From assembly GCA_001606155.1 (NCBI GenBank), contig LODT01000028.1, forward strand, positions 406,735 through 470,734: a DNA stretch of 64,000 bases, given 5' to 3'. How positions within the stretch are numbered: the first letter of the stretch is position 1; every line of letters starts with the position of its first letter. Of the stretch, positions 1,193 to 57,600 are shown piece by piece. Made by a program: the position numbers and the translations under genes. The notes beneath the pieces were generated by a model that saw only the letters and a list, made by a program, of their open reading frames with translations, was not told the origin of the DNA and searched no databases. The DNA comes from Tieghemostelium lacteum (Eukaryota).

Positions 1193-1235
1193 GATAATAA
1201 AACCTAGTTTCCTATACAATGTTTCCTTTATTTTT

Positions 1236-2671: not shown

Positions 2672-4931
2672 ATGAAATCCATACTAATTACAATAATTTG
2701 TATATTTCTATATTGTAGTATATTAAGTGTTGATGGTCAAGAAGAAATAGTTTTACAATCAATAATCAGAGATTTGACTCCATCGACCAATCCAGATTTT
2801 GAAATTGCTGGTTTAAATAAAATAATTAAAGGTCTTGTTAAAAGAAGACTTGGTGCTGATAGGAAACCAGTATATTCCTATAATTCACTGCCTGCTGAAT
2901 ATTCTGGAAATGTAATTATTCACAATCAAACTACTTTTTATTCATGGTTTCATAATGAACCTGGTGTATCAATTCCCATATCCATGCCAATAATTTTAAC
3001 CAACAATCAAACTTCAGAAGACCCTAGAATCTTTACTTACAAAAATCCAGCCTTTTTCCCAATTGATAACAAAGGTTGGGAGAAACCAAGTCTTGTTCAA
3101 AATTCCAATCACAAACTATACTATGATAAATATGAAAATGTTCATAACTTTCATTTTTGTTTGGAATTACATTCAACTTTTACCTACCAAGGTGGTGAGT
3201 TCTTTGAGTTTATAGGTGATGACGATGTGGTATGTATATTTAGGAATTTTAGGGATGTTGATAGAAATTCATAGACTAATTACATTGTTATTCGAATAGT
3301 GGGTTTTTATAAATAATCTATTGGTATTGGATTTAGGAGCACCACATGATACTATTGGAACTAATGGACATGGTTCAGTAGATTTGGATAGTTTAGATGG
3401 ACTGAAAATTGGTAAAGATTATCCATTTGATTTCTTTTATTGTGAAAGAAAATCAACTGAATCTTATATTGAAATTTCAACTAGTTTGAAATTAAAATGT
3501 AAATATCAGGATTACTGTGGTGTGTGTGAAGGTGATGGTTCTAGTTGTTGTAATGCTGAGGATAATTGTGATGACTATAATCCATGCACAATTGATAAGT
3601 GCCCACCTCCACTAACTAAACGATCTAAAGGTCAGTCAATTGATGAGATTTGCATACATGAACCTATACAATGCAACAGTACTGCTTGTGGTGAATATGC
3701 ATGTAATCGTAAATCAGGTCAATGTGAATTGGTCAGTGAAAAACTATGTACCTATAAAGACTCTTGTCAAATTGGTAAATGCCAAGAGAAGTTTGGTGGA
3801 TGCACTTATGACTCTATAAAATGTTTGGATAACCCATTATGTTCTGTTGGGCAATGTATGAATGGAACATGCCATTATACACCAATTACATGTGAAGACA
3901 ATAACAAGTGTACCATTGACGAATGTAACGATAAAATTGGATGTACCCATAGACTTTTGGATTGCAATGACCATGACCATTGCACAACAGACAGTTGTCA
4001 TAAAGATAAAGGATGTGTGCATACACCAATCTCACATTGTATTCCATGTTCAAATTCCACAAAATGTGAAACTAAAAATCCTTGTGTAAATATAGAATGT
4101 GATCCTGAAGCCATTGGGAAGTGTGTTAGTAAACCAGTGGTTTGTGATGACTTGAACAAATGTACAAATAATCAATGTGAAGTTGATCCAAAGACCAATC
4201 AACCATTTTGTAAGTTTACACCTATAGAGTGTCCCCAAACCAGTCTATGTGAGATTACATATTGTAATAGCACTCTTGGAAAATGTCAATCTATACCCAT
4301 GTCATGTGATGACTCTAATCCATGCACCATTGACTTTTGTGTTGATGGTCAATGCGAACATGTTTTGGATGCTTGTGATGACGGAGACAAATGCACAGTA
4401 GACCAATGTATAGTCGACAAAGGAGGATGTGTAAACTCTCCATTAGATTGTAGAGCTTCTTTTAACAGTAGCGATATATGTACAGAATTCACATGTGATT
4501 CACAATTGGGGTGTATACCAACACCTAAAATCTGTCCACAATCTGAGAGATTTTGTGAGATTTCACAATGTGATATAGTGGCTGGTGGTTGTATTTACTA
4601 CAACAAAACATGTATTACTGATAATCCTGATTGTGAATATGGACAATGTATTGAAGAATCAAGGTCATGTGAAACTAAGAGTTATAAACCTCTACCTTTT
4701 AAATGTTCTGGTGCTGCTAAAGCTGGTGTGGCAATTGCTGGTGCTGCTGTTGCTGGTATTGTCCTTGGTGGTGTTGCTGTATTATTATTGGCTGCATTTG
4801 GTGCCAAAAAAGGATTTGAACATTGGAGAGATTCCTCTAACCAACGAATGACACAAGTTCATGCTAATCCTCTATATGTCGAAAATCCTAATGTACAACA
4901 TAATCCTTTATATGTATCATCAACCATCTAA
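2672..4931 (+). CDS. Secreted/type-I membrane protein: fibro-slime (PA14-like) domain, many Dictyostelium-type Cys-rich repeats and a C-terminal TM
   Basis: Exons 2672..3229 and 3300..4931, with an alternative upstream ATG at 2615. The intron 3230..3299 runs GTATGT..TAG. Splicing restores the fibro-slime motif GDDDV|WVFINNLLVLDLGAPH. The signal peptide is MKSILITIICIFLYCSILSV. There are about 15 repeated C..D.C....C blocks, and the TM segment is GVAIAGAAVAGIVLGGVAVLLLAAF. Confidence 0.8.
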
Positions 4932-5124
4932 TACCTAAAAACCTAATTTATTAAGAACGTATATTTCCAAAAATAAAATCTTAACATTCACTTATTCTGG
5001 TGTTTGCAAGAAATAATTATAAACAATCTAAAAAAAATTTAAATTTTTTTATTTTGATATAAACACAGTCTTACCCACACACAAATAAAACCATAAAACC
5101 TTATTTAGGAAATTATATAATGAA

Positions 5125-28067: not shown

Positions 28068-31000
28068 TTAAATTAATAGTTGTTTGAATTTTCCAGCTGT
28101 GATAATTAATTTAATTAGGTGGTCTTGAATGTTCAATTTACTAAGAGCAATTCTAGCTTCAGAGATTTTAAGTTTGGAAAGAAGTTCAGTAATCTGAGTT
28201 CTTGGTTGTTTTATATTGCTAAGGAAGACAAAGACTAGGAGAACTAATAGATGAGATAAGTTGGTACCTTGGGTTGCAGCAGGATTAAGACCGATCAATT
28301 GAGCTTCAGTAATACCAATGTTATTGTACAATGTAGCTTTATAGATGACTGGGAAAACACCATTTGCTAATATACTCTTAAGAGCAGTAGCTACAATTAA
28401 CTGTTGTTTTAGGTGTTCTGGATCTATTTGTTGTTGATCAGATGCTTTAAGAGCTGGTACCACTGGGGCCTTCATTGAACCTGATGCTCCAAATAATGCC
28501 TGTTTGAATGATAAACCCTCCGATGATGAGATAGAGGAAGATAAGGAAGATTTGGAGGAGGATGGAGTTGGAGCTTGTTGGACCTTGTTGAGAGACCATG
28601 ATCGCATTTTGGGTTCTTCCTCCTCCGGTTCCCATTTTTTTGACTTTGCAGCTTTGGAGTGTTTTTTATTCTTTTTTTTGGAGGTTTTGAGTTCTTCTTC
28701 ATCACTTATGTCATCACCCCAATTGTTTTTGAATATATCAAATGGTTGATCTTTTTCTACACTTTTTTTCTTTTGATCTTTTTCTATACTTTTTTGAACT
28801 GGTTCTTCAAAACTATCAAATAGAGAGAATCCCATGTCTTCATCGGAAGATTCTATCATTCTTTTTTCTGATTGTCTCATGGATAATGGCTGAGCTGGTT
28901 TGCTTGTTGATACAGTTGTTGGTGTTGGTGTTGGTGTAGTAATTGGTTCCAATGGATAATAACCAAATAAATCACCATCAGCGAATCCCATGTCAGATTC
29001 GTCTTCTTCTGGCATAGATTTTGCATAATGAGCACTTGTTGATTCTTTAGAATTGGTTCTTGAAACTGGCATACTGTAACCTCCACCATCGTCTCCAAAT
29101 AAGGAGAATCCCATATCATATTCTTCATCTTCTTCCTCTTCTAAATATTTTTCTTTCACCTCCTCTTGTTTAGCTAAAGGTTTTACAGAAGCAGCAGCAG
29201 AATAGACAGTACCTGATATTTTCGAATCAGATCTACCTCCGAAACCACCTTCACTATCCCAGTCTTCATCGTCGTCATCATCATCATTTTCTTCATTACT
29301 GTCATATTCTTTTCTGACAATAGATAGTCTTCTTGTTGACAATCTTGAAGAAAGAGTATCCATAAGAGCTGTTTTGAAAGACTTGTCATTTTCATTTTTA
29401 ACTTCTTTTGGAACAGATTTCAATGTCTGACCAGATTTAATAGACGATAATAGAGATTCAGTTGAAGACTCTTTTTTATCTTCAATAACTTTAGTTGGAA
29501 ATAAACTACCATGTTTCTTTCCACCACTTGGGACACCGCCAGTTGTAGGAGGTGTAATAGAGGATGATCTAGGTGATGGTGTGGTTGAAGAAGATGGTGG
29601 TGGAGGTGGTGGATATGATTGTCCTCCTCCGCCTCCCATGAAATACATAGCACCAGGAGCCATAGGTGGTGGTGTTGGTGATGAGTCCCAACCTATATGA
29701 GCTGCATTTTGGAATGAAGTTGGTGCACCAATTACTAAATCTTTATCATTTAATTTATCTTTCATAAATAGATCTCTCTTTCCCTTTTCTTGTTTAACTG
29801 GTGCCATTTGTTTTGGTGGAGGTGGACCTGAACTTACAGATGGTCTTGGAGGTGGAGTTGATGGTAATGGAGTGAGTGATTGTTGTGGTAGACCTCCAAA
29901 GGATGGCTTTGAATTACCAACTGAATAGAAAACTTGTTGAAAAGATGGTGTCTGTGGTGGACTTTGTACAGATTGTTGCTGTGGTAGACCTCCAAATAAT
30001 GACGTTGAAGGAACTGGGGCTCCAAATGCACTTGTTGATCCAAATTTTCCAGTAGCAGTAGAAGTTGAAGCTGATTGTACGACTGAGAAGCTTTGTTTCT
30101 GTAATTGGTGTTGTTGTATTTTTTGTGGTTGTGGTTGTTGCTGATATTGTACAATTGGAGTAGTTGGTGTATTATAAGGAAGTTGTTGCACAGTTATTGG
30201 TGATGGAGATGGAGGTGGAAGTGAGTTTGTAGATAATTTCTTTTTAAATGAAACCATTCCACCTTTGGATTTACTAAGCTTTTCTTTGTCAACAGATCTT
30301 TCTAAGACACTAAATGAAATATCACTTTTGATATCATTATTGTTATTATTATTGTTATTGTTATTGTTATTGTTATTGTTATTGTTATTGTTATTGTTTG
30401 AAAAATTATTTTTTAAATTGTTGAATGCTTCTCTTAAATTATTACTAAGTGATCTTTTTTTTTCTCCACTTTCTCTTGATCTGGAACCTCTACTTTCGCT
30501 CTCTTTGGGACTTTCATATATCTTTTTATCAATAACCTCAAGCTCACCAGATCCTAAAATGTCATCAACACTATTTTGAGGTGAATATCTAGAAGCACCA
30601 TTGCTCATAGTGGAACCTATTGTACCACCTCTACCTCTAGATCTACCATTGCTGCCACCTCTACCTCCATCTTTACCTCTTAGACTTACATTATCTCTAA
30701 TAGCATTTCTTGAATTTAATGCACCTGATAAATAAGAATCAAGCTCAAGGTCTAAAGAGTCAAAATGTTGATGTGCTTCTAATGATGGTTTTTCATCAGA
30801 TATGGGAATGTTTAATTCAATTGCACATAGTGATTCACTTTGTTCTTCAACTAGGTTTGCTAAATCTTGGAAAATGTCTTTAATTCCAGACATATCTGAT
30901 TGAAGTTGGAGGAGAGATTCATTTCTTTCATGGAGAATTTCATTATAATCCAACTCTTCTTTAGAAAGTTTGTAGGGTCCATATTCTTTTTCTACATTTC

Positions 31001-34000
31001 CAGTTGGATGAGGTCTATTAAGTTCCTTTACAGTTGGTGTGACCGTTTCAACTTTAAAAGTTACGGATGGTTTCATTGGAGATTTAATCCATTTATCTAG
31101 ATTGTTCTTTAACTGTTCTTGTTCATGTTCCTCATTTGAATCTCTGATAGAGGAACGTTCTTGTTCAGATTTCTTTCTTTCCAAACTCAACTCCAAGAGC
31201 TCTTGTTCATTTACAATAGTTGTAAGATCATCTCTAATCTCTTGCATAATCAATGTACTATCTGTATAAGAGTCCTCAGAAAGACTATCCAGTTCTGAGA
31301 TGGCATTGTCAAATGCCTCTTTAAGAATATGAGTTGATTTCTCAACTTGACCTGTTCTCTTATAGAATTGTCCTGCAAATTTACTAGCCCTTAATCTGTG
31401 TGGATGTGTTGATGGTAATGAAGAGAGTTTAGATAAGAGATTGTCAAGTTTTCCCGAGATCTTCTCATCCAATGATTTCTTGGCAATATCATTTTCTTCA
31501 AATTGACTTTGAGTGTCATAGAGTTGACACTCATCTTGAATTAAAGCAATTAGATTCTCATCAACTGCTTGGTTCTTTGGAACGGATTGTTCTATCAATC
31601 TCAATAGACTCTTAACCTGATAGATTAAATCAGTCTTTATCTTCAACTGACCTCTTTGAGCTTGTTTTAATTTTACAGGTGTCAATTTAGTTGGAGTTGA
31701 TACTTTAGTTGGTGTCTTTTTAGGTGTTGAAGTTGAGGGTTGTTGTTGTAAAAATACAGTTGGATCAAATTTAACTAATTCAATCTTGTCAAGAACCAAG
31801 TGTTTAATAGTTTCATTGATCATTTTAATCTCCTCTGTAGTATATTCTCCAAATTGTTCAGTAATTTGGTGGAAAATATTGATTGAATCTTGGTATTGTC
31901 CATTGGCATGCATGGATTTAGCCACATGAACTACTTGGTCTCTCTGGGAGAGTAAAGTGGAATCATTTGGATCTTGATCAGAGCCCTCAGCTTTTTCTTG
32001 CCATTGAATGTATGGTAATGTATCAATAACAGTTTGACTGACAATCTCTTGAATGGATGGTATATCTTTACGTTGAATTTCATTCTTTTCACGTTTTTCA
32101 ACAGCTACAAAACTGGTGAATTGTGTTACAATGGAATATTTAATACTGAGATTGATGATATCTTGTTTCTTTCCAAGTTTAATAAGGTCATTATCAAATT
32201 TTGAATTTGAATAGGTACCATCATTGTATTCTCTAATCATAGATCTTGCTGCTAATCTATGTATAAGACTACCACGAATGAAACCAATTTCAGGAGTGTG
32301 AACTGAATTTGTGATTAATCCACCACCTGGAGCTTGTGCAACGAGAGTAGCTCTAGTAGCAATTCCAGAGAATGCATATATCACTTGTCTTTCTTTCTTG
32401 AAGATTGAAGTAATGATATTAGGTGACTGAATAATCTTATCTGTAGAATCAAATTTAACTGAAATATTTGACATGGATGGTTGTAATGTTCTCTGAAGTT
32501 GATTGATAATCTTTTTTGGATTAGGTCTTTTGTTTGGTACAACAAACTCTGAATAACCACCACCTAGACGAGAGATGGATTTGATGAAATGTCTAGAAAC
32601 ATTTTCACCAATACCAAATGTAAATAATTTACAATAAGGTGATGCCTTTTTAACAAGTTCTTGCACTAAAGTTTCATTGGCAACGTTACCATCACTGTAT
32701 AGAATGATATTGTGTGGATTATTAGGTTTGGCATTCTCAGCTAACAAGAATAGTGATTGTAATGGTTGATGTAGTTGTGTGCCACCATAATGAGGTTTCA
32801 AACGATTGATATGATTCCAAGCCAATTGTAGATTGATTTCAGTTGGAGGTACATCTTCAACGAATAACCAATCAAATTGGTCACCAAACTGGACAATGTT
32901 AAAGAGTACTTTGAAACCACGAAGATTGGAAACAGTGAGTCTAAGAGCTCTTAACATATCCTCAAATGCATCACCAGCCATAGATGCTGAGAGATCAACA
33001 AGTAATGTCAAATGTGTTAGAGAATCCTTGTCATTGTCGATATCTAATTTTGGATAGAATGCCAACATGGATGCATGGTGACCTTGATCATCAACTTCCA
33101 CCCACATTCTAGGTGAATATGGTTCCTCAAGACCAATAAGTAACTGGAAGTTCTTACCAAGACTACTGTCTCCACTTGTGAGTTCAACAGTAGCTTTAGT
33201 GTTAGTCTTCTTTACACGAATTGGATGAGTTGGAGATGTTAATTTAACTATATTATAAGGCATTTCAACACCAACTTGTAGAGTCAAATCAAGGTTTTTG
33301 TCATCACCAATATGGGTAGTAGAAGTTGTGTTTTGAGTTACAGTACTACCACTTTTAGCACGTTGTTGAGGACTGATAGATGATGGTAAAATAAATGAAA
33401 TATCCAAACCATCCATTGACAGCTCTGTTATATAAGTTATCTTTATCAATACATCAGCTTGTGGTGGAAGATTACCAACTGAAACTGAGAAAACATCTGG
33501 TTTATCTTCATCCATTAAATAAGCACCATCACCTCTTTCAACAGCTTCCCTATACTCTCTATGTGCTTTCTCTTTCTCTTTACATTCACCAACTACATGT
33601 TTACCATTGATGAATGCTTCGAAACCACAAACTGCAGCCATTTCATCTAAAGGAAATACATATTTTGCCTCAATTTGAGAACTTGATGAATTCTTGTAAT
33701 GTTGATAGATAACAACCTCACCAATTAAATCCAGAACTTTAGCACGTACATGAACATCTTTTAATGGAATATCAACTTTTCCACCAGATGCAATAAGACC
33801 TACTTCCTTAGGTTCCTCTTCCATATCCTCAGGTTTAGAAGATGGTTGGATCTGGTCACTTACCTTGTCTTGTGGTAATGTTAGTTTTGGAGCACTTTGT
33901 GCACTAACTGCCATAGCTTGAGGTACTGCCAAAGGAGTTGATGTAGTTCTTGCATCAGGCATCTCAAATTCAACTAGATACAAGAGTTTTTGTTGTTTAG

Positions 34001-35935
34001 GATCATAGATTACAATTTCATCATCCTGGAAAGCACTTTGTACAGCAGATGTTGATGCAACACCTTGTACACTTTGGTAGCCTTTTGGAGGGCTGTCTAA
34101 TTGGTATTGATGTTGAGTGTATTTCTTTGTGTTACCCAAGGCAGCTTGGCATACAAACATGTATTTTCTTTGTGAGAAATCGGATCTCTTACAGTACTGG
34201 GTTGAAGTTGAACTCTTTAGACCAAAGTATATACCACTACCAAGGTAACCAATATCTCTTCTGCCTGTGGATAGAGATGTTGATACATTAGGTGTAAGCA
34301 AACCTCTTGACAAAATACCCAAGACATTACTAGGGTTACTACCATGATAGAGTGTCTTAATGTTAGGAATGGAGAACTGAAGATTCAACTCTTCGTTTCT
34401 CTGTGTTGAGTATATCTCCTTGATTACAATATCAGGATTCTGTTGTTTAATCTGGTCATAGAGTTTCTTGTGATCCTTGGAGTTATCAGAAAGACATTGA
34501 ATATTACAACGTAATGCACGATAACGTGTATCCACTATAGAGGTTGAAGAAACACCCAAAGACTCACCAACATTCAGTATATCCTTAATCAATTGAATGC
34601 AATCTTGAATATCCTGAAGTTCAGATACAATCTGAGGAAGATTTCCAGAGGCTGTCAACTGAGCAATCTTGCATTGCTTAAGTTGAGGTAAAGCCTGATA
34701 GACTTCATTGAATAGTTGTACAGTTGTTGGTGATGACAAAAGTGGTTTACCATTATCGGTTTTCATCAGAGTTGCCAATTGGAAGAGTGACAATTCAGCC
34801 TTCTCCACTTGAACCAATGTTATATCACCAAGGTCAGATTTGATTGCACCTTCAGGTGACAATGTCAATTTAGCCTTACACATCAGTTTAGTACCTAGAG
34901 TTGACATGGCTTCCTGATAAATACGTTCAATAAACTTTTGAATAGGTTCGGGAAGTGATGATTTCCCAGAAGAAGACTGTAAATTTGAACTTTGTTGCAG
35001 TCGATCTGAACCTACTCTAGCTGAAGAAACTTGAATTTTAGTGTATTGTCTATTGGAGGTGTACTCTAAAAATATTTGATTATAAAGTTTGAGAGCATCT
35101 TCAATGGTAGATGATGAAACCCATTCTTTAGTTTGATCAACACTACCAGTTGTACCATAGTGCATAAATACTCTATAGAAACTTGGTAATCCTGAATCTG
35201 AAGATCCACTATCACCTCCAAGTGATATAAGTGACAATGCTTTACCAGCTACGTGCAACTCCAAACACATAAACTCTTGTGTATCCAATCTATGAAGGAT
35301 ATTGTATTTAATAATGTGGTATTTATCTTCTGGAAATTGTGATCCAAGATCACTGGACTGCACAGCATTAGGTTGATATTTAACTTTCTTTAACTGTTCT
35401 AATGAAAAACCACTACTACTCTTGTTGTCACCATTTTCAAGAATATCAGAGAAATTCAATGACTTGTAATGAAACTCTTTAATATTATATTGAGATACTA
35501 ATGAATACTCACTAGTTGACAATAAAGTTCCAAATGAAATGGAATCATCAAGATATCTCTTTGAAAGTATTGGTATATTTAATTTTATAGCTTTTTTGAT
35601 ATTAAATGATAATGAATCCACATTTATATCTTTTTTATCTGAATCTGTTTCAGATACTTCTACTTGTTGTTGTTGTTGTTCATCTGCTTTAACTAAATCA
35701 TCAAAATCACCATTATAAATAAAGTAATTAACCTATTGTAAATTAAAGTATTAGTAAAGTAAATAAAATGGTCATTTTCAATGGTGTGTTGGTTCTTAAG
35801 TTAACTTACTTTATGATTTAAAACTGCAGAAACTGTTCCTTTATATTTTAAAACAAGATCTTGTAAAGCTTTTTTAGCTTTGTAACCTTGATTGGTACAA
35901 TCTAAAAAAAAGGTTTGATGTTCAAATATTGACAT
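28068..35935 (-). CDS. Giant (~2,596 aa) vault-PARP/PARP4-like poly(ADP-ribose) polymerase (BRCT-WGR-PARP-VIT-vWA) fused to a long C-terminal extension carrying a WASP-like CRIB/Pro/WH2/C/A module
   Basis: Exon 1 is 35810..35935 (MSIFEHQTFFLDCTNQGYKAKKALQDLVLKYKGTVSAVLNHK, BRCT start). The intron is 35733..35809 (GTAAGT..CAATAG). Exon 2 is 28068..35732, one uninterrupted ORF. The WGR domain is at about 35030-35330. The PARP catalytic domain is at about 33960-34370, with the H-Y-E triad in LYHGSNPSNVLGILSRGLL, GSGIYFG and DDEIVIYD. The VIT domain is at about 33400-33790 and the vWA domain (LLVDLSASMAGD) at about 32480-33020. The C-terminal motifs are listed under findings. Confidence 0.85.
30336..30398. 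repeat. (GTTATT)n microsatellite encoding a ~24-residue poly-Asn run in the PARP gene
   Basis: Perfect hexamer repeats on the plus strand, translated on the minus strand as NNNNN... within SNNNNNNNNNNN..DIKSD. Confidence 0.9.
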
Positions 35936-40394: not shown

Positions 40395-41984
40395 TTAGTA
40401 AATGGATGAGTTTATTAGAACATTATATTTGGTGAATACATCCAATAAATCAATTTGAGTTAAACTGGGTTCTTTAGATAAATCAAAACAATTCATTTGT
40501 TGAATTGTTGTATTGATTCTAAAGAGTTCATTAAATTCTTTTACCATATCAGCTGTGAATTTAAAGGTATCTGACCTTGGAAGTGGTAGAATAAATGTAT
40601 GAAGAGTTTTGTTGATTGTTAGAATATCAATATATAGTTTACAATGATTATAATTGTTATTAAACATATACGAAAACCTTTTTATAGCTAACCCGGTTAG
40701 TGTGGTGTTGTAAGAGAGTGATGTTATAAATATGCCTAAATTATTTTCAATACTATTTACATAGGAACGGAGATCGTGTATATTATATCTTTGAACACTT
40801 GAATGTGGAATTGACAGAATTTGATTTAGAACACTTATATCCAATTCATAAAATTCAATAGTGTGAAGATTTTTAAGTGCAGAAAAATCATTAATCCCCA
40901 TTGAGCTTGTTAAATCTGGTAATGTGAGATACCGTAGATTTTTAAATTCTTTAACTTCATATTTACTAGCACCACTTACCCAAATGGATTTTATATTATC
41001 TTTATGTTTCCATAACTCTAATATCCTATCACCCTTAGTTGTGATGATAAGTTCTAGAGAATGAATCCATTGGTTTGATATATTATCTGGTAATGTTTCA
41101 TTGTTCCATTCTATATAAACTAAAATTAGAGTACCAGTTTTGATATTGGATAGAAAATCAACAACTACTTGATGTGAGGTGATTATATTTGCTGAGTCCA
41201 CCCTCAAACGTTGCAGATTCATTGATTGTGAAGCATGTTTTAATATTTCATAAACTTTATCGAAATTGTTTTCATCTTCATCTAAGACTATACCATGAAT
41301 TCCTAGATTTTGGCAATTCAAAGAGTTTTCCAAGAGAGACTTTAACATCCATTGTGACATTTTAATTCCATCTATAATTATTTTAGTTAGAGAATTGGGT
41401 TGAAAGGAATTTGTATTTTCACCAAAACAGGATAAAGACAAAAAATGTATGCTGATAACTCTTCTATTTTGAATTAACTCTCCAATTCTATTAAAATCTT
41501 CTAATTGTGGCACCACAAAAATTTTAATATTGATGTCAATGTTAGATAATGATTTTAGTTGGTTGATTAGATATTCTTGGGATTTTAAAAATGAAGTTTC
41601 AACAACTATAGATTCTGAATTCTTGAAATGAGATATTGTTTGATTTATATTTTTTCTTTGTTCATCATGGATTTCAATCTGACTAACTTGATCTCTAATG
41701 ATTTCATTTAAATGTTTATAATAACAATTAGGTAAAATGAATCTATAATTATACCATTTATATTTATTTGCAAGTGCTATGAAATCAGGTACTAATTTAA
41801 CTGTTCTTGGTCTTTGTAAATTATTAACATGTCTATATCGTAATTTTACAATTATTGATTGGTTCCATTCTTTACTGATCAATGTATATTTTCGTAAAAA
41901 CATATAAACGTATTCAATATCTATTGAATGATTTAGAATTGGATCTAAAATATTAATTATCAGATAATTAGGTATCATCGCCAT
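40395..41984 (-). CDS. F-box-like / leucine-rich-repeat-like protein (intact copy B)
   Basis: 529-aa uninterrupted ORF. The N-terminus is F-box-like (IPNYLIINILDPILNH..LISKEWNQ). Irregular LRR-type periodicity follows (NLRYLTLPDL, LKNLHTIEFYELD...). Confidence 0.7.
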   Translation of the reverse strand: MAMIPNYLIINILDPILNHSIDIEYVYMFLRKYTLISKEWNQSIIVKLRYRHVNNLQRPRTVKLVPDFIALANKYKWYNYRFILPNCYYKHLNEIIRDQVSQIEIHDEQRKNINQTISHFKNSESIVVETSFLKSQEYLINQLKSLSNIDINIKIFVVPQLEDFNRIGELIQNRRVISIHFLSLSCFGENTNSFQPNSLTKIIIDGIKMSQWMLKSLLENSLNCQNLGIHGIVLDEDENNFDKVYEILKHASQSMNLQRLRVDSANIITSHQVVVDFLSNIKTGTLILVYIEWNNETLPDNISNQWIHSLELIITTKGDRILELWKHKDNIKSIWVSGASKYEVKEFKNLRYLTLPDLTSSMGINDFSALKNLHTIEFYELDISVLNQILSIPHSSVQRYNIHDLRSYVNSIENNLGIFITSLSYNTTLTGLAIKRFSYMFNNNYNHCKLYIDILTINKTLHTFILPLPRSDTFKFTADMVKEFNELFRINTTIQQMNCFDLSKEPSLTQIDLLDVFTKYNVLINSSIY

Positions 41985-42222: not shown

Positions 42223-45200
42223 ATGGAAGACTTAAAAATCACATCTGAGATTAAGGAAGAAAAAAACACAGATTCTTCTACTAATACCAAAGAAGCAACA
42301 GACAGTAAATCAGTCAGTGATACATTAATTAATCCTATCACAAATGAGCAGTCATCATCATTATCATCTACAGATAAACCTCAATCACCACCACAAAAAA
42401 CAGATGATGATATTGTAAATAATAATATTAATATAAGTATTAGTAGCAGTGGAAATGAAAGCACTGATACATTACTGAATACAGTAAAATCTAGTATAGA
42501 TCAATTACCAGATAAAGAAATTAAAGATAAATCTAATAGTAATGAGTCCAAAAATAGTAGTAGTAGTAATAATAATAATAATGGATTTGAATTATTTTCA
42601 AATGAATCCATGGCAATAACTGAAGTAACTACCTTACAGAGATCTAGGTCATCTTTGATTTCCTCTGCCAGTTGTATACCTTTAAAGACAGGAAATAACA
42701 TTTTATTAAATTCTGATGAAAATCAATTGGATTCTGTACAGAAAGTATCTATTAAGTCCACTGGACCTAATGTTGATCACAGTTTGAATATAAATAATAA
42801 TGAAAAATCACAGTCCAATGAGAAAAAAGTTAAACCTGTAAAATTACATTTATCTGATAATGCAATACCTACAATATCAAGTTCATCTTCATCGAATGTG
42901 GCCAATAGCAGTGGTGCTACTAGTGCACCTGTTGTAAAATATTTCCCATTGACTCCTTATCTATCGAAATTGGATCAAATTAAAATTGTTTCAGATACTC
43001 TGTCGAGTGCAGATCAAAAGTCACCTCAACAGTCACAAAAAGCATTGGAAAGTCTGTTAATTGAAAATAAAAGAGGAACTTCAGATATGACATCCCTAAT
43101 AAGTCAAGCTGATTCTGATAACCCTCAAACCAATACAACTTCAATTCCAACCAATGAAAACTCATCAACATTGGGATTCTCACAAGACTCCATAGACGAT
43201 GATGAGTTGTCATTTGATGATTTAAATAGTTCTTCAAATTTAACACCACCAACATCTCCAATTCCAATTCAGTTACCTCCCACACCTAACACCACTCCAA
43301 TTTCAAGTCCAATCAGATCATCCATTCTCACCAGTGAATTACTTTCATTTGCATCTGAAACACCTCAATCTAATACCCAAACCATTGAAAAACCAATCGA
43401 AAATGAACCAATAGAAACTGAAATTAAAAAAGTTGATATATCAAAAGAAGAAGGTAAAGAAGAAGTAAAACCTTCACCATCTATAGCATCATTAGTTAAA
43501 TCTGAAAAACCATCAACTCCAACTACCTCCACTGACACAACTAACACTAATACAACACAACCAACAACTCCAAAACAACCAGAATCACCAACTAAAAACA
43601 CTAATAACAATAATAATAATAATAACAACAATAATGGTAGTAAAGATGTATTTGATCAATTTAATGATCATAGATCATCACTACAATTTTGGAAAGAGAT
43701 GTTTAAGAAGAAGAAGAGATCTAATAAGATTGAACATGATAATGCAAAAATACAGAAAGCTAAAGAACTTGAAAAGAAACATAAAGATGAATTTGATAAA
43801 AAAGGTCCACAAATACAATACAAGAAACAATATAAACCTAAAGAAAAGGATGGTGCAAATAAGACTGATGATGATAATGATTATTTTAATAGAGTTATTG
43901 ATGATGGTTTTAAATTGACAACTCTACCTACTGAAGCTGAAGATGATGGTCATGTATTTATACTCTATGGAAATTTGAATAAATTAGTTGTTGATGTTAA
44001 AATGGTACCTTGTGGTAACCATGTAAGTTCATCAGTTGCACTTAATCATTGGTTGAAACATGACTGGGCACAGTTTCCACCTGATATCAGAAACAATATT
44101 CAAGTTTCAACATCACCAGTGGATTTCAAGAGAGGTAAAGATAGAGTTTATAAATTACAAAATTGGCCTACACAGTATCCGAATATAAGTCAACCTTGGT
44201 TTTGTAATGTTGTGCCCTCATTCTATCCATACCCTATTAAAGCTGAATGGTATGTCAAAGGTGCTCAAGAGTATTTAAATAAGGTTGGTGAAGATCTCCG
44301 AAAAACCAACCCACCAATTAAAAACGGTCGTGCAAAGTATCTTATATCACTTCCTATTGTTGGAACTGGTGGAGGTGGTGGTAGCTATCTAGCTGGTGAG
44401 ATCCTAACACTACTCATTAACGAACTCTATGCTGCATCTAGAAAATGGAAGTATGATGTAGTTTTAGTAACCAACGAGATTTCAATGTACACTGCTGCCA
44501 TAAACAAGAGAAATGAGCTAATTAGTAAAAACAAAACATTTAGCTACAATTACAGGACTTTACTAGGACCTTTAATGGGAAAAGCAGAGTATCTCTCCAA
44601 GTTGATAGATAAGGATAAACTGGCGTCTTTTGTAGGAAGTGGAATGTCAATATGTGCAGGGTTGCCTAACTGGCAGTACCTATTACAAATGTTGGGTGAG
44701 AAGTTGGGAATGTCAAAAGAAGAGATTAGGTCAATGGAACAATTACATTATCTAGATAGAGCAACGGTTTTGGAAGGTCGTTGGAAGAAGGCTTTGGCGA
44801 AATACCATCCACCGGATTTAAGTTCATTCAAGTCGCTGTATAATAGTAATAATCCAGATGAACAGTCTCAGGAGGAGGAATCGAATATTCAAATTAATAA
44901 GTTTCATCAGATGCATAAGGATATTTATAAGGAGGTTAATGTACCTATGCAAACAGAGATTGCAAATCTTATGAAGGTCTCACATGCAGGTTTAACTCAC
45001 TTCCTACTTACAAGTACAAATATTCAAGAGTTTATCACAACAAACTATGATGAGTGTTTGGAGATTGCCAGTAAGTCTATTGATAGACCTGTTTGTGTTT
45101 TACCTTATGAAAACCCTACATTGTCTAATAAGAGATGGGTATTGAAGCTTCATGGCTGTGTTAAACATCCTCAAGATATTGTCATTACACGTGAAGATTA

Positions 45201-45849
45201 CATTCGTTATGGTGATAAGAAAGAAGCACTTTCTGGAATTGTACAAGCATCTCTTTTGACTAAACACCTTTTATTTGTAGGCTTTAGTCTGGTAGATGAC
45301 AACTTTTATCAAGTAATGTCAGCTGTCAAGAAAGTAACCAACAACACTCAGAAAAAGAAATATGGTACCGTTTTATTCATTCAAAAGAATGACTTAATGT
45401 GTGAACTCTGGGGTGAACATCTAGACATTATCTGCTTTGATACCAGTACCAATGGAAAGTCACAAAGTATTGCAGAGTGTGCTAGAAAACAAGAAATATT
45501 CCTAGAGTATTTGGCATCACTATGTTGTGTCAATAATCATACTAGTCATCTAATGGAAAAAAGATTTGATTGTCTTCTATCGGAAGGTGAGAAAATATTT
45601 AGAGATAAAATTATATCATTTGTAGATGATCTACCTCAAGAAGCAAAAGAAACTCAAGCATTTCATAAATTCCAAGAGTTTCTCGACCAAATTGGTTACA
45701 ATTATGGTGGTTATCAATATCTTCATCAAATACAAAATATTCAAAAATCTTTTCAAAAACCAAAATGGAAGACTTTTGGTGAACCTTCCAATAATAATAA
45801 TAATAATAGTAATAATAATAATAGTAAATCGAACAGTAAAAAGCAATAA
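42223..45849 (+). CDS. Large protein with a low-complexity N-terminal half, a macro-like domain and a SIR2_2 (ThsA/FAM118-type) NAD-binding/NADase-like domain
   Basis: 1,208-aa ORF. The macro-like segment is at about 43950-44480 (HVFILYGNLNKLVVDVKMVPCGNH ... ISLPIVGTGGGGGSYLAGEILTLLINELY ... YDVVLVTNE). The SIR2_2 motifs are at about 44620-45500: FVGSGMSICAGLPNWQYLL, FITTNYDECLE, LKLHGCVKHPQDIVITREDYIRY and LLFVGFSLVDDNF. Confidence 0.8.
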   Translation: MEDLKITSEIKEEKNTDSSTNTKEATDSKSVSDTLINPITNEQSSSLSSTDKPQSPPQKTDDDIVNNNINISISSSGNESTDTLLNTVKSSIDQLPDKEIKDKSNSNESKNSSSSNNNNNGFELFSNESMAITEVTTLQRSRSSLISSASCIPLKTGNNILLNSDENQLDSVQKVSIKSTGPNVDHSLNINNNEKSQSNEKKVKPVKLHLSDNAIPTISSSSSSNVANSSGATSAPVVKYFPLTPYLSKLDQIKIVSDTLSSADQKSPQQSQKALESLLIENKRGTSDMTSLISQADSDNPQTNTTSIPTNENSSTLGFSQDSIDDDELSFDDLNSSSNLTPPTSPIPIQLPPTPNTTPISSPIRSSILTSELLSFASETPQSNTQTIEKPIENEPIETEIKKVDISKEEGKEEVKPSPSIASLVKSEKPSTPTTSTDTTNTNTTQPTTPKQPESPTKNTNNNNNNNNNNNGSKDVFDQFNDHRSSLQFWKEMFKKKKRSNKIEHDNAKIQKAKELEKKHKDEFDKKGPQIQYKKQYKPKEKDGANKTDDDNDYFNRVIDDGFKLTTLPTEAEDDGHVFILYGNLNKLVVDVKMVPCGNHVSSSVALNHWLKHDWAQFPPDIRNNIQVSTSPVDFKRGKDRVYKLQNWPTQYPNISQPWFCNVVPSFYPYPIKAEWYVKGAQEYLNKVGEDLRKTNPPIKNGRAKYLISLPIVGTGGGGGSYLAGEILTLLINELYAASRKWKYDVVLVTNEISMYTAAINKRNELISKNKTFSYNYRTLLGPLMGKAEYLSKLIDKDKLASFVGSGMSICAGLPNWQYLLQMLGEKLGMSKEEIRSMEQLHYLDRATVLEGRWKKALAKYHPPDLSSFKSLYNSNNPDEQSQEEESNIQINKFHQMHKDIYKEVNVPMQTEIANLMKVSHAGLTHFLLTSTNIQEFITTNYDECLEIASKSIDRPVCVLPYENPTLSNKRWVLKLHGCVKHPQDIVITREDYIRYGDKKEALSGIVQASLLTKHLLFVGFSLVDDNFYQVMSAVKKVTNNTQKKKYGTVLFIQKNDLMCELWGEHLDIICFDTSTNGKSQSIAECARKQEIFLEYLASLCCVNNHTSHLMEKRFDCLLSEGEKIFRDKIISFVDDLPQEAKETQAFHKFQEFLDQIGYNYGGYQYLHQIQNIQKSFQKPKWKTFGEPSNNNNNNSNNNNSKSNSKKQ

Positions 45850-45938
45850 CATCAAATAAATAATTTTAAATTGAGAAATGGAAGTATATTCAAAATTTTA
45901 TCAAAGTGCATTATATATTGAATGTAAAGGTCTGTCTT

Positions 45939-46245
45939 TTAGTAGCAACCACCACCTCTTCCATAACCACTATAGACATTGACATTTCCATAGATATTAA
46001 TATCAATATCAGCATAAACTATAGTGTTATAGGTATCACCACCACGACCACCATATGGACACCAACTAGCAGATTTCTCATTTGATTGACCAGAACTAAG
46101 GATGGGACCACTGCTTAAAGATGCATTGGTGACTGATTTGGTTGGGTTTCCGAGAGCTGAGATGGTTTCTATAGAAATTATTTAGAATGTTAATAAATAT
46201 TCTTTATTATCAAATATTTTTATAATATTTACTTAATAATGTCAT
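45939..46245 (-). CDS. HssA/2C/7E-family small Gly-rich protein (80 aa), two exons
   Basis: Exon 1 is a 13-nt micro-exon at 46233..46245 (ATGACATTATTAA) with a GTAAAT donor. The intron is 46169..46232 (64 nt) and ends CTATAG. Exon 2 is 45939..46168. The product is MTLLKTISALGNPTKSVTNASLSS...YGNVNVYSGYGRGGGCY. It is not in the ORF track because it is spliced and short. Confidence 0.7.
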
Positions 46246-46350: not shown

Positions 46351-46435
46351 TGTGTGTTTCTTTTGGTGTGTTGGGTTTTTTTTAGAAAATATACAAATAC
46401 AGGAGAGTGACGCGAAGTACACACCCCACACACTC
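46351..46435. promoter_or_regulatory. GT-rich and CA-rich G-box-like pair upstream of the HssA-like gene
   Basis: TGTGTGTTTCTTTTGGTGTGTTGGGTT lies at 46351-46377 and ACACACCCCACACACTC at 46419-46435. Confidence 0.35.
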
Positions 46436-47979
46436 TAATTGATTTTTATAATTACTTTTTTCTTTTTTTTTGATTCTCTGATGATGACATTATTATTGAA
46501 AATTGGATTATAGTTTGGTGGTATACCATTTTTATAGTATGCCACTCTTTTTACTTTGGGATTTTGTAAATTTGGTATATGTTCACAAGTTAGATTATAT
46601 TGACCAAAGTTCTTGATAATTTTCATGTCCTTATCAGGTGATGGTACTGAATATTCAATGGAAATACCTAGAAGTTTAGGAGCACCTTCTGGTAAATGTG
46701 AGAAGAGTTTCTCAATGCTATTCTCTTGACTTAGATAATCAGGTGTAATCAAGTGTAATTGTTCTAGTGATTTACTCTGTGATATGGCTTTTGAAAAACA
46801 CCATCCTAATGATCCGTATAGTTCATATCTTGTTATATTCATTGTAAGGATTCTCAGTGACTTACAATCAGTTAGCATGGCTTTAAAGTTTGTACTGGTT
46901 GATAATGAACATTCTTCAGATAGTGTTAGGTTATCAATACGAAGATTTACCAATGACTCTGATTTGTTATTGAGATGTAGATAACTTTCAATACATCCTT
47001 GAAAAGCATGTATAGTAAATGATGTAATATGTTTCAGAAATATCCATCTAGCAAAATAATTTTCATCAGTTATCCAATAAAGATCCAGTGTCTTTATATT
47101 TTCATATTTGTTTAAAAGTGGGAATAGTTCGTTTAGTTCTTGGTATGCATGAACCTTCAATGTCAGAGTAGACAGATTTGTAAGAGAATCAAACATCAAA
47201 AATACAGAAGAAGATATATAACTAATAGTCAGATTCTTTAGTGACTCTACCTGGTTATTGATAATCCTTGGATCCATAGTATAATCATCTGAGATAAACT
47301 TTAATCTCTCTAATCTATTTGGAGCATAAGTTGACAAAAAGTCAATTGAAGTCAATTTACTAGTTGGATGGTGAAAGTTAATTAAACTGGTTGTATTGGG
47401 TTTCTTGAATTCTAAGTGAAATGATGTTATTGATTTTTCAACTGCCAATAACAAAACTTTAAATGTGTCAACATGGTCACGGTTATCGAGTGTCAGAGTA
47501 AGATGTTCTAGATTTGGTATAACCATTGTAGATTGAAAAGGTGGAAGTAAACCATTTATACCAACACTATTCAATTTTAGAGTTTTTAACACAGGAAAGT
47601 TTTTTACAGATAACAAGTTGTGTGATAATTGATTGTAATGGATATCTAATGACTCTACGTGTACAAATAGTGTTGATAAACCTTTAACGAAGGTTAAACC
47701 TGCCATGTTATTTACTGCCATATTTGATATTATCAATGAGCTAGGTAACCCAAGTAAACAGTAAGGACTACGTAAATGTTCAACAGCTTCTCTAATATTA
47801 CCATTATTTTTCATTAAATCCCAAACTGATATAAATTTGAAATAGTGTTTATGTAGATATTCAAATAGTGCCTTATTGACTAACCCTAAATGCATCTTAT
47901 ATCTAAAATCATAATAATCTGTATCAACTACATAATGAATAATTTGATACAACAATACATGAGGTATTGGAAAATACAT
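46435..47979 (-). CDS. F-box-like / LRR-like protein (a family distinct from 40395..41984)
   Basis: 514-aa ORF. The N-terminus FPIPHVLLYQIIHYVV is followed by repeated L..L.L/N-type segments (LKTLKLNSVGINGL, LEHLTLTLDN, LKNLTISYIS, LSTLTLKVHA...). Confidence 0.65.
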   Translation of the reverse strand: MYFPIPHVLLYQIIHYVVDTDYYDFRYKMHLGLVNKALFEYLHKHYFKFISVWDLMKNNGNIREAVEHLRSPYCLLGLPSSLIISNMAVNNMAGLTFVKGLSTLFVHVESLDIHYNQLSHNLLSVKNFPVLKTLKLNSVGINGLLPPFQSTMVIPNLEHLTLTLDNRDHVDTFKVLLLAVEKSITSFHLEFKKPNTTSLINFHHPTSKLTSIDFLSTYAPNRLERLKFISDDYTMDPRIINNQVESLKNLTISYISSSVFLMFDSLTNLSTLTLKVHAYQELNELFPLLNKYENIKTLDLYWITDENYFARWIFLKHITSFTIHAFQGCIESYLHLNNKSESLVNLRIDNLTLSEECSLSTSTNFKAMLTDCKSLRILTMNITRYELYGSLGWCFSKAISQSKSLEQLHLITPDYLSQENSIEKLFSHLPEGAPKLLGISIEYSVPSPDKDMKIIKNFGQYNLTCEHIPNLQNPKVKRVAYYKNGIPPNYNPIFNNNVIIRESKKKKKVIIKIN

Positions 47980-53569: not shown

Positions 53570-54601
53570 ATGTGTAGATTTATATATTATCTAGGACCAC
53601 CAACCAAGTTATCTACAATTATATCAGAGCCATCACACGGATTGATTAATCAATCACTGCATTCTACATGTCCAGGATTAACATTGAATGCTGATGGATT
53701 TGGAGTTGCATGGTATAACGATTTCTCTGCAATTCCTGGTGTATTTAAAGATATTACACCTGCATGGTCAAATATAAATCTGCGACAATTGGCAAAGAGT
53801 ACCAAGAGTTCATGCATTATGGCACATGTTAGAGCTGCCTCTGCAGGTGCTATTGTGAATACCAATTGCCATCCATTCACTTTTAAAAACCTCTCCTTTA
53901 TGCACAATGGTACCATTACCTACTTTTCTAAACTAAAGAGAAGCATTCTATCTATGCTCTCTGATACTGCTTTTGAAATGATAAAAGGTACTACCGATTC
54001 CGAAGTACTATTTGCACTATTTATTACAAACTACGAAAAAGAGATAAAATACGTTCAAGAACAGGTTAAACCCTCCGGTGCTGTTTATTACAGTACACAC
54101 TGTCAATTGGAGATGGAGGAGAAACCATACCCTCCAACAGGTATTGATGTTCTTCCCAAAGTTCTAAGGGAGACCATTCAACAGATACACAGATTGATTC
54201 TGGAATTTGAAATTCAACAGGAAATTTTACCAAAAGACTATCAAGTCGAATCTGGTGCCTCTATGAATCACACTCATACATGCTCTAAATTGAATCTGGC
54301 TGTTACAGATGGTGTAAATGTAGTTGTGAGTCGTTATGCAACTGGACAAATTGAGAATGCACATACACTCTATTGGTCAAGAGGTACAACTATTCAATGT
54401 GACTCTGGTCACTGTAAAATTGGAAGATCTTGCGAACTATCTCCAATGTCTTTACAATACGGTCAAGGAAATACAATTCAACATTCTCTAGTCATAAGTT
54501 CAGAACCACTAGCTCAAGATTTCAAATGTGAAGAAGTACCAATCAATCATATGGTGATAGGTAATTGTCATGGTGGATTTTCAATAGACGCAATAAATTA
54601 A
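53570..54601 (+). CDS. Class-II (Ntn-type) glutamine amidotransferase-like protein (YafJ/EgtC-like)
   Basis: 343-aa ORF starting MCRFIYYLG, so Cys2 is the nucleophile. It also contains DGFGVAWY, MAHVRAAS and NCHPF..FMHNG, typical of the GATase_4/6 families. Confidence 0.75.
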   Translation: MCRFIYYLGPPTKLSTIISEPSHGLINQSLHSTCPGLTLNADGFGVAWYNDFSAIPGVFKDITPAWSNINLRQLAKSTKSSCIMAHVRAASAGAIVNTNCHPFTFKNLSFMHNGTITYFSKLKRSILSMLSDTAFEMIKGTTDSEVLFALFITNYEKEIKYVQEQVKPSGAVYYSTHCQLEMEEKPYPPTGIDVLPKVLRETIQQIHRLILEFEIQQEILPKDYQVESGASMNHTHTCSKLNLAVTDGVNVVVSRYATGQIENAHTLYWSRGTTIQCDSGHCKIGRSCELSPMSLQYGQGNTIQHSLVISSEPLAQDFKCEEVPINHMVIGNCHGGFSIDAIN

Positions 54602-54669: not shown

Positions 54670-57600
54670 TTATTTAGTTTTTCTGAGATTATCTTTGGTT
54701 TTGTAAAATTGAGAAAGTGATTCTAGGGATTTAGTGCACTTTAAGTTATTTTGTAGACATACTCTTGCCCATTTTGATAGTTTTTCACTGTACAATGATT
54801 TTGAGTATCTTTCATCAACTAACAATATAGAACCATAATCATTACGATGTCTGATACATCTACCTATAGCTTGATTGAGTGCACGGAATGCTTGTAAATT
54901 GTACCAATAGTGTCCGTCAATGGCCTTCTGTTCTTGTTGTTTTATAGTGTCATTATAAGCTTTCTTTAATTTAACCTTGATATCACCAAGATTCGGATAT
55001 GGAATACCAACTACTATAACACCTCTGGCATATTCATCAGAGAAATCAATACCTTCTGAGATCTTTCCTCTGCAGACTGCCATCAGAATGGCACCGTCTC
55101 TACCAGGTGGATTATCTCTGATGGTTACATAGTAGTCTGATAGAGTCTCTTTAAAGTTACTAGAACGTTCTCTAAAGATTTTCTTTACATTATTCAAACG
55201 ATCATAGAGTTTAGTGGATTTCCAACGTGCTTCAATTTTATCTAAAAAACCATAGGATGGGAAAAACAAAAGGACACCATGAGGTATAAGTTTACAATGC
55301 TCCAGAATAGCCTCTCCAAGTGCATCTTGAAATTGTAAAGATTCTGAGGGTTTGGAAGTACAATCCATTTTGATTTGATCATTTTGACCTGCGAAACCTA
55401 GGGTGTTGATCCAAACTCTAGATTTAATGTCACTGAGATTTCCCAGTTCAGCAGTGATTGGAAATGGAGCTGAGAGTTCGAATGCAAAACTATTCAATGG
55501 CGTAAGGGTACCACTGGTCAATATAACAGTTCTAACCTGATCGAATATTAATGATGAAAACGCCACCCTAGGTGACATTGCCCAGATACCCAGTGTATGA
55601 GCCCACTTTGTTCCACTCTGTCCTTTACCAGTTGGCACAAAAACAGAGTTCTTTTGAATGACCAATTTGTAATCTTTCAGAAATGTATAATCTCTCTCGA
55701 ATATAAATTTTATAGATTTGACAAAAGAGTCCAAGAGAATAACAGTTTTAGGTGACACAAATTCATAGAGTACATCACCCTTATTTCCAAAAAAGTCATC
55801 ACCTTTCTTAAGATCTAGTTCACTGGATAGCATAGCAATGTTGGTTTCCAGATCGGGAAATGTAAATTTAGAAACACCCATCTCTTCCAAAGCACTTAAT
55901 ATATCATCCTTTTTCTCTAGAACCAATGCATATTTTTCAAAATCCACTTTCTCTACAGACGCTAGTTTCTTCTTGAACCATGTATTTATCTTCTCCAATT
56001 GTCTAAATATATAGGTCATCGATTGTAAACGTGTGGGATGTTTGGTTGTTAAATCGTTGTATAGTGTAGGGTTCTCCAAAGTACTTCTAATCTGTTGATA
56101 GGATTCAAATAGTTCTTCAAGAGACACATTAAAACTTGCAGCATCCATAAATGCATCCTCTACATTATGTGCCTCATCAAAAATCACAATGGAATTTTTC
56201 ACCTTTTTTTTAAATGCTTTTCTAATGGAGGGATCAATGAGATAATTGTATGGACAGAATATCAAATCTGCAAACTCAATCATATCCTTACTGGCAAAGA
56301 ATGGACATTCTCTAGTTTTCTTTCCTTCCAATATAAGATCCTCTATATCCCATACTGCCAATTCACCACCAGCCTTAAACTTTGATGATTTTGCTATAGA
56401 ATATGTATTTTTTACAAATTTACATCCACTGTCTCTTATCAATTTCATACATCTTTCTTTTTTCTTTGCAATATTCTTTAGTTCTGGATTGACACAATAG
56501 TGATCTCTTGACCCCAACACCAACATATTAGGTTGATAAACTGTCTTTTTTAATTCCTTTGTCAACTGTTTAATTTGTGAATGTGTTCTACTACAATAAA
56601 ATATAGTTGGAACTGGTGGTGCCTTAAAACTATCTTCGTTATCTTCTATATTATCAACATTACCATTTCCATTATTATTATTATTATTATTTTCATTATT
56701 TTTGTTTGGATTATATTTATATTGTGAAATAAATTCATCAAAATCATTGTTCATATTATTATTATTTTCATTTTTGATTTTGTTTGGATTATATTTATAT
56801 TGTGAGACGAATTCATCAAATCCATCATCCATTGTTTTTCGTTTTAATCCATTTGCATTGTCATTGCTATTATTATTATTATTTAAATGTCCAAATCTAT
56901 TGAGTGCATCTTTAAATTCTACAAAATCAGTTTGTAATTTATCTGCAAGTTGTTGTGATATTTGACTAGTTTGTAAATCGTCTAGAGGTGTAGTGGCGGA
57001 GGCTTGTGGGTCAATTTTAACTTTTTTTTGTTGGTTTTTCATCTTTTCCATGAGCTCTGTTTCTTGATGCTTTAGCAAGTTCTTTTGCTTGCTCTAATAA
57101 CTTATTTGCCTTTTGTTTTTGAGTGAACTGCCATTCCAATGTACTTGCCAAGAGAGTTAGTGTTTTTCCAGTGCCTGTTGCAGACTCCAATACACAATGT
57201 GTAGAGTTATCCAATGATTCCAATATATGAGAAATCATTGTTGACTGACATTCATATGGTTCATATGGGAATTTAACTTTATAACCTTTGATTAAATAGG
57301 TATTATCACCTAAATTCGTACATATTGGTGTTTGTATTTTTGGTGGTGATTTACTAGTATCATTATTATTATTGTTGTTATTTTTGTTAAGATTTAATTT
57401 AAGTGTAGATGATGATGATGATGTAGTGGTTGTTGTAGTTGTAGTGGTAGGTTTTTGAGGGAGTTTTAATTTCAATGTCAATTTAGGTTGAGAATTTTGA
57501 GATGAACCTTGTGATGAGTTTTGTAAATTTTCAGTTGGAGTTGGGGTTGGAGTTGGGGTTGAGGTTACTGTATCTTGAGATTGTTGTGAACATTTTGAAG

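Follow-up and report, generated by a model that had tools for sequence, protein, structure and literature searches.

Could a single polypeptide of a dictyostelid both sense a nucleotide-type signal and answer it by consuming nicotinamide adenine dinucleotide (NAD+), in the manner of the bacterial Thoeris systems? The question is raised by DLAC_05565, a gene of Tieghemostelium lacteum that lies in a 64,000-nucleotide stretch of contig LODT01000028.1 (positions 406,735 to 470,734 of the forward strand; hereafter the window, whose first letter is position 1). The gene is an uninterrupted open reading frame (ORF) in AT-rich surroundings (~30% GC), and its product is 100% identical, across all 1208 amino acids (aa), to the protein P0179 of our set, which public sources list as KYQ92964.1, 'hypothetical protein DLAC_05565 [Tieghemostelium lacteum]', and as EP00025_Tieghemostelium_lacteum_P004824. 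It has therefore already been annotated, as a single-exon dictyostelid gene model with its function unassigned. We find that the product joins a macro domain of a divergent subtype to an intact ThsA-type SIR2 domain, and that the two form a single evolutionary unit of bacterial ancestry. We suggest, with about even confidence for and against, that the protein is a ThsA-like sensor-effector in one polypeptide, in which a ligand of the ADP-ribose (ADPR) type on the macro domain would gate NAD+ hydrolysis by the SIR2 domain.

A ThsA-type SIR2 domain preceded by a macro domain

The SIR2 half of DLAC_05565 is an intact ThsA-type SIR2. SIR2_2 (PF13289) is the sole Pfam match in the protein (aa 936-1057, E=7e-30, 104.4 bits against a gathering cut-off of 24.5), and the canonical SIR2 family PF02146 gives no match at E<=1. 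PADLOC ranks the SIR2 half of ThsA1 first (E=5e-34), followed by PDC-S25, LmuA and Dsr2; NCBIfam returns a partial Dsr2 match only. By sequence (phmmer against the PDB), the nearest chains of solved structure are SeThsA (7uxt, E=5e-20), BcThsA (6lhx/8bto), DSR2 and KomC, with alignments that span the GxG motif and the TTNYD...K(L/M)HG...FxGFSxxD core. When a two-domain AlphaFold (AF2) model (predicted local distance difference test score, pLDDT, 87.4; predicted template modelling score, pTM, 0.88) is compared by Foldseek, the top matches are KomC, BcThsA, SeThsA and DSR2, at E~1e-11. The sequence-only reading of this locus had listed a set of SIR2_2 motif strings, all of which are present at the residues it named, and the Asn/His pair that it took to be catalytic is retained in an alignment of 162 family members: there is no variation at N941, D943 and G978 (162/162), and position 977 is His in 161/162. 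In the NAD-binding motif, G805, G807 and W817 are kept in 160/162, 161/162 and 159/162 members, respectively. At the position aligned with Asn941, the 8bto chain has A in place of N. Inspection of aa 790-1060 found no CxxC pairs, which means that the domain lacks the Cys tetrad by which deacylase sirtuins bind Zn. Judging from its relatives, the domain is most likely an NAD+-hydrolysing enzyme (NADase).

The label 'ThsA/FAM118-type' that the domain had been given holds only in its first part. PADLOC, sequence and Foldseek all place the domain near ThsA, and no FAM118 chain is found by phmmer (E<=1) or occurs in the first 50 matches of Foldseek. FAM118B/SIRanc is likewise a eukaryotic SIR2_2-type protein of bacterial-defence ancestry, but it falls in Clade A of the survey of Bonhomme et al. 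(bioRxiv 10.1101/2024.09.18.613514) and has no macro domain, whereas DLAC_05565 belongs to Clade C of that survey.

The domain upstream of SIR2 had been read as macro-like from a pattern of residues, and profile and structure tests now bear this out: structure prediction gives aa ~570-760 a macro fold, not an unrelated one and not SLOG, LOG or TIR. A direct search with aa 553-799 against PDB sequences yielded noise only (major histocompatibility complex chains at E>0.1), and when 34 members were compared with the Pfam Macro families, none had a match at E<=10. We built a family profile from the N-terminal domain cut out of an alignment of ~515-aa homologues, which matches macroH2A1.1 (E=1.3e-4), TTHA0132 and macroH2A.1 in the PDB and aligns the 'CDAxxxP' strand and the 'LPxxGTGxGG' loop. 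Because only this profile reaches macroH2A1.1 and Pfam gives no match, we regard the domain as a divergent macro subtype. Its AlphaFold model, computed for the domain alone, is confident (pLDDT 87.3, pTM 0.87), and its nearest structural relatives include the PARP9/PARP14 macro domains and Af1521.

Two conserved elements of this domain correspond to parts of the macro ligand pocket. The position of Asp591 is D in 158/162 family members; the Asp with which it aligns, in the macro 'CDAVV/VDAIV' strand, is known to contact adenine N6, and Asp591 is accordingly a putative adenine contact. Next to it the family conserves a Cys (147/162), where T. lacteum has V590. The Gly-rich loop at aa 711-719 is the counterpart of the diphosphate-binding loop 2 of macro domains, with P711 in 160/162, G714 in 161/162, G718 in 150/162 and G719 in 157/162 members (GTGxGG 90-99%). 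H577, R703, D745 and R763 are conserved in the family as well. At the sequence level, the loop-1 motif of MacroD-type hydrolases, Nx6GG[VLI], cannot be made out in the part of the consensus that follows the CDAWLxP strand, which suggests that the macro domain may be a binding module.

These features bear on another way in which a sirtuin and a macro domain might work together, as a writer and an eraser: the SIR2 domain would ADP-ribosylate itself or a target, and the macro domain to which it is fused would remove the mark, as in SirTM-macro operons and the fungal fusion protein Mfs1 (8rsn). Such systems likewise couple a macro domain, physically or genomically, to a sirtuin. However, SirTM belongs to another class of sirtuins and ADP-ribosylates, whereas the sirtuin of DLAC_05565 is of the ThsA type (PF13289, with no PF02146 match) and NADase-like by its nearest structures, its close solved relatives all being NADases. 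As the catalytic motif of loop 1 is also not evident in the macro consensus, we consider a writer-eraser pair unlikely, mainly on account of the sirtuin class and the nearest structures.

A single evolutionary unit of bacterial ancestry

Macro and SIR2_2 constitute one evolutionary unit, with a strict coupling of this macro subtype to SIR2_2. Many homologues of ~515 aa cover the stretch from the GHVF motif to the end of SIR2 at 93-95% with ~30% identity. An exhaustive search with the macro profile found 1585 representatives at E<=1e-3 (1181 at E<=1e-10), and in the best 140 of these 1585 every protein longer than 450 aa (97/97) has SIR2_2 as well as macro. A role of this macro subtype as a promiscuous sensor on other effectors finds no support in the best 150 representatives, where the longest homologues are either tandem (Macro-SIR2)x2 repeats or proteins extended N-terminally like those of dictyostelids. 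Two tandem units in one polypeptide occur in P0133, P0139 (Thecamonas trahens AMSG_01600), P0225 and P0132, the last with extra partial macro matches besides its tandem units. No PADLOC model spans the macro part or the complete Macro-SIR2 architecture.

The whole two-domain unit is of bacterial ancestry. When species-representative prokaryotic genomes were scanned, at least 374 stretches could be confirmed, and the unit is widespread in bacteria; the best 80 of these, all full-length, were taken for the analysis of gene context. They include Myxococcota (Polyangium, Bradymonadia), Planctomycetota (Gemmata), Gemmatimonadota and Actinomycetota (Arthrobacter, Pseudonocardia, Microbacterium, Bifidobacterium), together with other phyla. 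In a rough neighbour-joining (NJ) tree the dictyostelid proteins are monophyletic (100/100) and lie at a distance of ~1.2 from prokaryote-type sequences, versus 1.5-1.6 from the diatom, MMETSP and Thecamonas members. As such a distance tree does not resolve deep branches, we do not infer from it the number of transfers into eukaryotes.

It had been proposed that the arrangement would be new for an amoebozoan protein, and this proves wrong. The SIR2_2 ('SIRim') proteins of 985 eukaryotes are the subject of a survey by Bonhomme et al. (bioRxiv 10.1101/2024.09.18.613514), who described a Clade C, SIRim fused to Macro, in 83 eukaryotic species, branching with ThsA-like prokaryotic sirtuins. Their Table S4 names exactly the DLAC_05565 protein (start MEDLKITSEIKEEKNTDSST) as Clade C, along with the D. 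discoideum orthologue P001125 (EukProt EP00023_P001125) and members from D. purpureum, C. fasciculata, Acytostelium, Synstelium and Thecamonas. Not only the architecture and the clade but also DLAC_05565 itself are thus already in the literature, and the discovery value of the locus is low. Between Clade C and DLAC_05565 we see no difference in kind, the SIRim+Macro architecture being confirmed by Pfam and structure; our placement rests on the name in Table S4 and on this architecture. We found no experiments on Clade C in the literature, that survey included. What is added here is the structural confirmation of the macro fold and the strict macro-SIR2 coupling, and, from bacterial loci, the lack of a TIR partner and an ADP-ribose-processing neighbourhood in Actinomycetota, a modest addition that narrows the candidate ligands.

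A proposed sensor-effector logic and bacterial gene neighbourhoods

It is reasonable to suppose, by analogy, that Macro-SIR2 follows a sensor-effector logic, since there are two precedents: the SLOG domain of type I Thoeris, which responds to 3' cyclic ADP-ribose (3'cADPR), and the macro domain of type II, which responds to an ADPR derivative. Type I ThsA (SIR2-SLOG; BcThsA 6lhx/8bto, SeThsA 7uxt), in which binding of 3'cADPR by SLOG switches on SIR2, is among the best PADLOC and Foldseek relatives of DLAC_05565. Both proteins fuse an NADase to a nucleotide-binding module, and they share the SIR2_2 subtype with its GxG, TTNYD and K(L/M)HG motifs. The sensor of type I ThsA, however, is a C-terminal SLOG, whereas that of DLAC_05565 would be the N-terminal macro domain: a C-terminal SLOG (STALD) was not found, as the PADLOC ThsA1 matches end at about position 230 of 478 in the profile and the region after SIR2 is helical. 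In type II ThsA (EcThsA 8v6q) a macro domain is the receptor for an ADPR-derived signal. Bonhomme et al. liken the Clade C architecture to this protein (bioRxiv 10.1101/2024.09.18.613514); contrary to that likening, type II ThsA consists of a transmembrane segment and a macro domain without SIR2. DLAC_05565 has no such transmembrane effector; its effector is SIR2_2, and its macro part has no PADLOC match.

We propose that the N-terminal macro domain takes the role that SLOG has in type I ThsA. It would bind an ADPR-containing ligand, which might be free ADPR, a conjugated form (for instance a signal resembling His-ADPR) or a macromolecule that has been ADP-ribosylated; binding would alter the conformation or the oligomeric state of the protein; and the altered state would turn on NAD+ hydrolysis by SIR2 via Asn941/His977, and the resulting fall in cellular NAD+ would serve as a stress or immune response. 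In this chain we infer the binding of a ligand and its identity, the activation, NADase rather than transferase chemistry, and an immune role in amoebae. If the scheme is true, it would represent a third wiring of a Thoeris-type NADase, with a macro sensor replacing SLOG, that extends from bacteria to amoebae and many protists, and Dictyostelium would offer a tractable model for the carry-over of bacterial NAD+-depletion immunity into eukaryotes.

Type I Thoeris has an adjacent TIR gene, thsB, whereas the bacterial Macro-SIR2 loci have no recurrent ThsB/TIR. Among 115 genes close to bacterial homologues, TIR was not one of the Pfam families that recur, and it was absent from four contexts that were inspected individually. 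In a search for an operon partner, the clustering of 392 neighbour ORFs gave no family present in more than 13/80 loci. In the four inspected contexts, the ORFs that follow downstream (387, 121 and 227 aa) were considered as partners and rejected, having no Pfam or PADLOC match and not being shared. The sole recurrent theme among the neighbours is ADP-ribose-related genes: NrtR (NUDIX plus NrtR winged helix) near Macro-SIR2 in 13/80 loci, an ADP-ribosylglycohydrolase (ARG) fused to a dual-specificity phosphatase (DSPc) in 12/80, and ARPP-1 (PF20208) in 8/80, the carrier loci being actinobacterial in all but one case. Further neighbours include NERD-UvrD helicases, HNH nucleases and DUF7255.

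In Actinomycetota, Macro-SIR2 thus lies beside the genes of a predicted, ADP-ribose-centred conflict system. Iyer, Burroughs & Aravind 2022 (PMC9503650) described an ARG-centred conflict system, predicted to counter viral ADP-ribosylation, whose hallmarks are NrtR, ARG-phosphatase and ARPP-1 and in which Macro is a variable accessory. That system is defined by the absence of coupled sirtuins; actinobacterial Macro-SIR2 genes nevertheless adjoin its hallmark genes, whereas the DLAC_05565 locus has no such neighbours. It would be tempting to extend the sensor-effector scheme accordingly, to a self-contained, TIR-independent immune switch of bacterial origin that senses ADP-ribosylation or ADPR metabolites derived from an attack and collapses NAD+, and that in Actinomycetota acts as the effector arm of ARG/NrtR/ARPP. 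Its triggers might be, for example, ADP-ribosylating effectors of intracellular bacteria (Legionella) in amoebae and phage ADP-ribosyltransferases in bacteria. We regard this extension as doubtful. A narrower version, in which the macro domain reads host proteins modified by a pathogen ADP-ribosyltransferase and SIR2 removes NAD+, the substrate of the toxin, would fit both the actinobacterial adjacency to a system predicted to counter viral ADP-ribosylation (PMC9503650) and the structural relatives that read protein-linked ADP-ribose (PARP9/PARP14 macro domains, Af1521). Yet that context comes from one bacterial phylum only, and protein-linked and free ligands are not separated by the present data; we think a detector of this kind very improbable.

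Several points weigh against a sensor-effector in DLAC_05565. That the macro domain is unlikely to be a hydrolase is a judgement from missing motifs. T. lacteum has N584 (43972-43974) and V590 (43990-43992) at positions that are D in 148/162 and C in 147/162 members, other dictyostelids included, and a functional relaxation of its macro domain is therefore conceivable. Beside the 80 bacterial loci there is no recurrent candidate for a signal synthase, TIR or other, and many bacterial loci resemble ordinary chromosomal neighbourhoods, several of them lying among housekeeping genes. Moreover, ADPR is what a SIR2 NADase itself produces, and the macro domain could therefore serve product feedback instead of sensing.

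In that case the macro domain would bind ADPR made by its own SIR2 domain, for feed-forward or feedback control, and the role of the protein would be metabolic, in NAD homeostasis, not immune. Besides the established chemistry, the linkage to NrtR, an ADPR-responsive regulator of NAD metabolism, is consistent with this idea, as are the housekeeping surroundings of several bacterial loci and the lack of a dedicated signal generator beside them. On the other hand, an NADase that escaped regulation or amplified its own activity would be toxic, and the patchy phyletic distribution, together with NERD-helicase, HNH, Fic and SocA neighbours, suits conflict systems better. Bonhomme et al. also group Clade C with ThsA-like defence sirtuins. 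We consider product feedback distinctly unlikely, and retain the gating of SIR2 by an ADPR-type ligand as our preferred scheme.

Two bacterial settings are of interest in their own right. In a Fimbriimonadaceae locus (L008, 1-5600), Macro-SIR2 shares an island with SocA_Panacea, Fic and HNH genes and with an excisionase-like gene (HTH_17), and a 227-aa ORF with no Pfam match overlaps the 3' end of the Macro-SIR2 gene. In Polyangium, 12 bp separate Macro-SIR2 from an upstream, same-strand gene for a protein of ~1300 aa; more generally, a protein of 1150-1350 aa ends 12-50 bp upstream, on the same strand, in L013, L014, L017 and L064 (about 1000-5010) and in L043 (1605-5048), the hosts being Polyangium and one Planctomycetota metagenome-assembled genome. 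By eye, it comprises a Ser/Thr kinase (HRDVKPANL, DFG), a P-loop (GPPGTGKS) and then helical repeats, and it could be a STAND-like partner of Macro-SIR2.

Accessory regions and neighbouring genes

The N-terminal 560 aa had been called low-complexity, and composition per 50 aa and the lack of any Pfam match bear this out for aa 1-573; the region is probably disordered. In alignments the N-terminal extension is confined to dictyostelid members, bacterial homologues beginning at the macro domain (GHVF). Within it, one short motif with the pattern KY[FL]PLTP[YH]L.K[LF]DQ[IL]K is common to T. lacteum, D. discoideum, C. fasciculata, Heterostelium (P0003) and the protein P0001. It is followed by a second, weaker island, LE[AS]LLIE[NK], and the rest of the region is unalignable. 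We infer that this dictyostelid-only extension of 570 aa probably adds eukaryote-specific regulation or localisation. The dictyostelid-specific insertion in the SIR2 domain has lower pLDDT (64-81) in the two-domain model, in which residues 616-624 fall below 50 and which stops at aa 1176, just before the Asn-rich tail.

Table 1. Positions of the features of DLAC_05565 in the window, and the bacterial loci with ADP-ribose-related neighbours
Feature	Position	Strand	Basis or remark
Whole gene DLAC_05565	42223..45849	+	single exon, 1208 aa + stop; ORF list
N-terminal low-complexity region, aa 1-573	42223..43941	+	composition per 50 aa; no Pfam match
Short conserved motif KYFPLTPYLSKLDQIK, aa 239-254	42937..42984	+	alignments; inside the probably disordered region
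Macro domain, aa 574-772	43942..44538	+	divergent subtype outside Pfam coverage
Asp591	43993..43995	+	aligned to D of macroH2A1.1 'RCDAVVHP'; macro 'CDAVV/VDAIV' strand
Gly-rich loop PIVGTGGGG, aa 711-719	44353..44379	+	aligned to TTHA0132 'FPLLGTGVGG'
SIR2_2 (SIRim) domain and C-terminal helical extension, aa 788-1158	44584..45696	+	family-profile envelope 788-1158
NAD-binding GxGxS...AGLPxW motif, aa 804-817	44632..44673	+	aligned to 'GAGLSIPAGFCSW' of SeThsA
Dictyostelid-specific insertion in SIR2 domain, aa ~857-907	44791..44943	+	alignment columns 801-900; absent from bacterial homologues
Catalytic-type Asn941 (in TTNYD)	45043..45045	+	aligned to ThsA TTNYD
Catalytic-type His977 (in KLHG)	45151..45153	+	aligned to ThsA K(L/M)HG
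C-terminal Asn-rich tail, aa 1177-1208	45751..45846	+	translation
Bacterial loci with ARG-DSPc fusion, NrtR, ARPP-1			L051, L054, L055, L058, L059, L070, L071, L073, L075, L084, L087, L088

The adjacent genes of the window were screened for ADP-ribose-related partners, and the immediate neighbours are without Pfam domains: the flanking ORFs at 40395-41984 (-) and 46435-47979 (-) encode ~520 aa each, have no Pfam domain and show no detectable kinship to each other. Directly downstream of the Macro-SIR2 gene lies a short Gly/Tyr-rich intergenic reading frame (45937-46170, -). Farther away, an ORF of 2517 aa (28068-35621, -) with a PARP catalytic domain (PF00644), VIT, VWA and a 14-3-3-like region is a vault-PARP (PARP4)-like protein. 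An ADP-ribosyltransferase thus lies ~6.6 kb from the gene of a possible ADP-ribose reader, a closeness that, in a eukaryotic genome, is probably coincidence. The window also holds two ordinary genes, one for a class-II glutamine amidotransferase-like protein (53570-54601, +) and one for an XPD/RTEL-type helicase with DEAD_2 and Helicase_C_2 domains (54670-57078, -).

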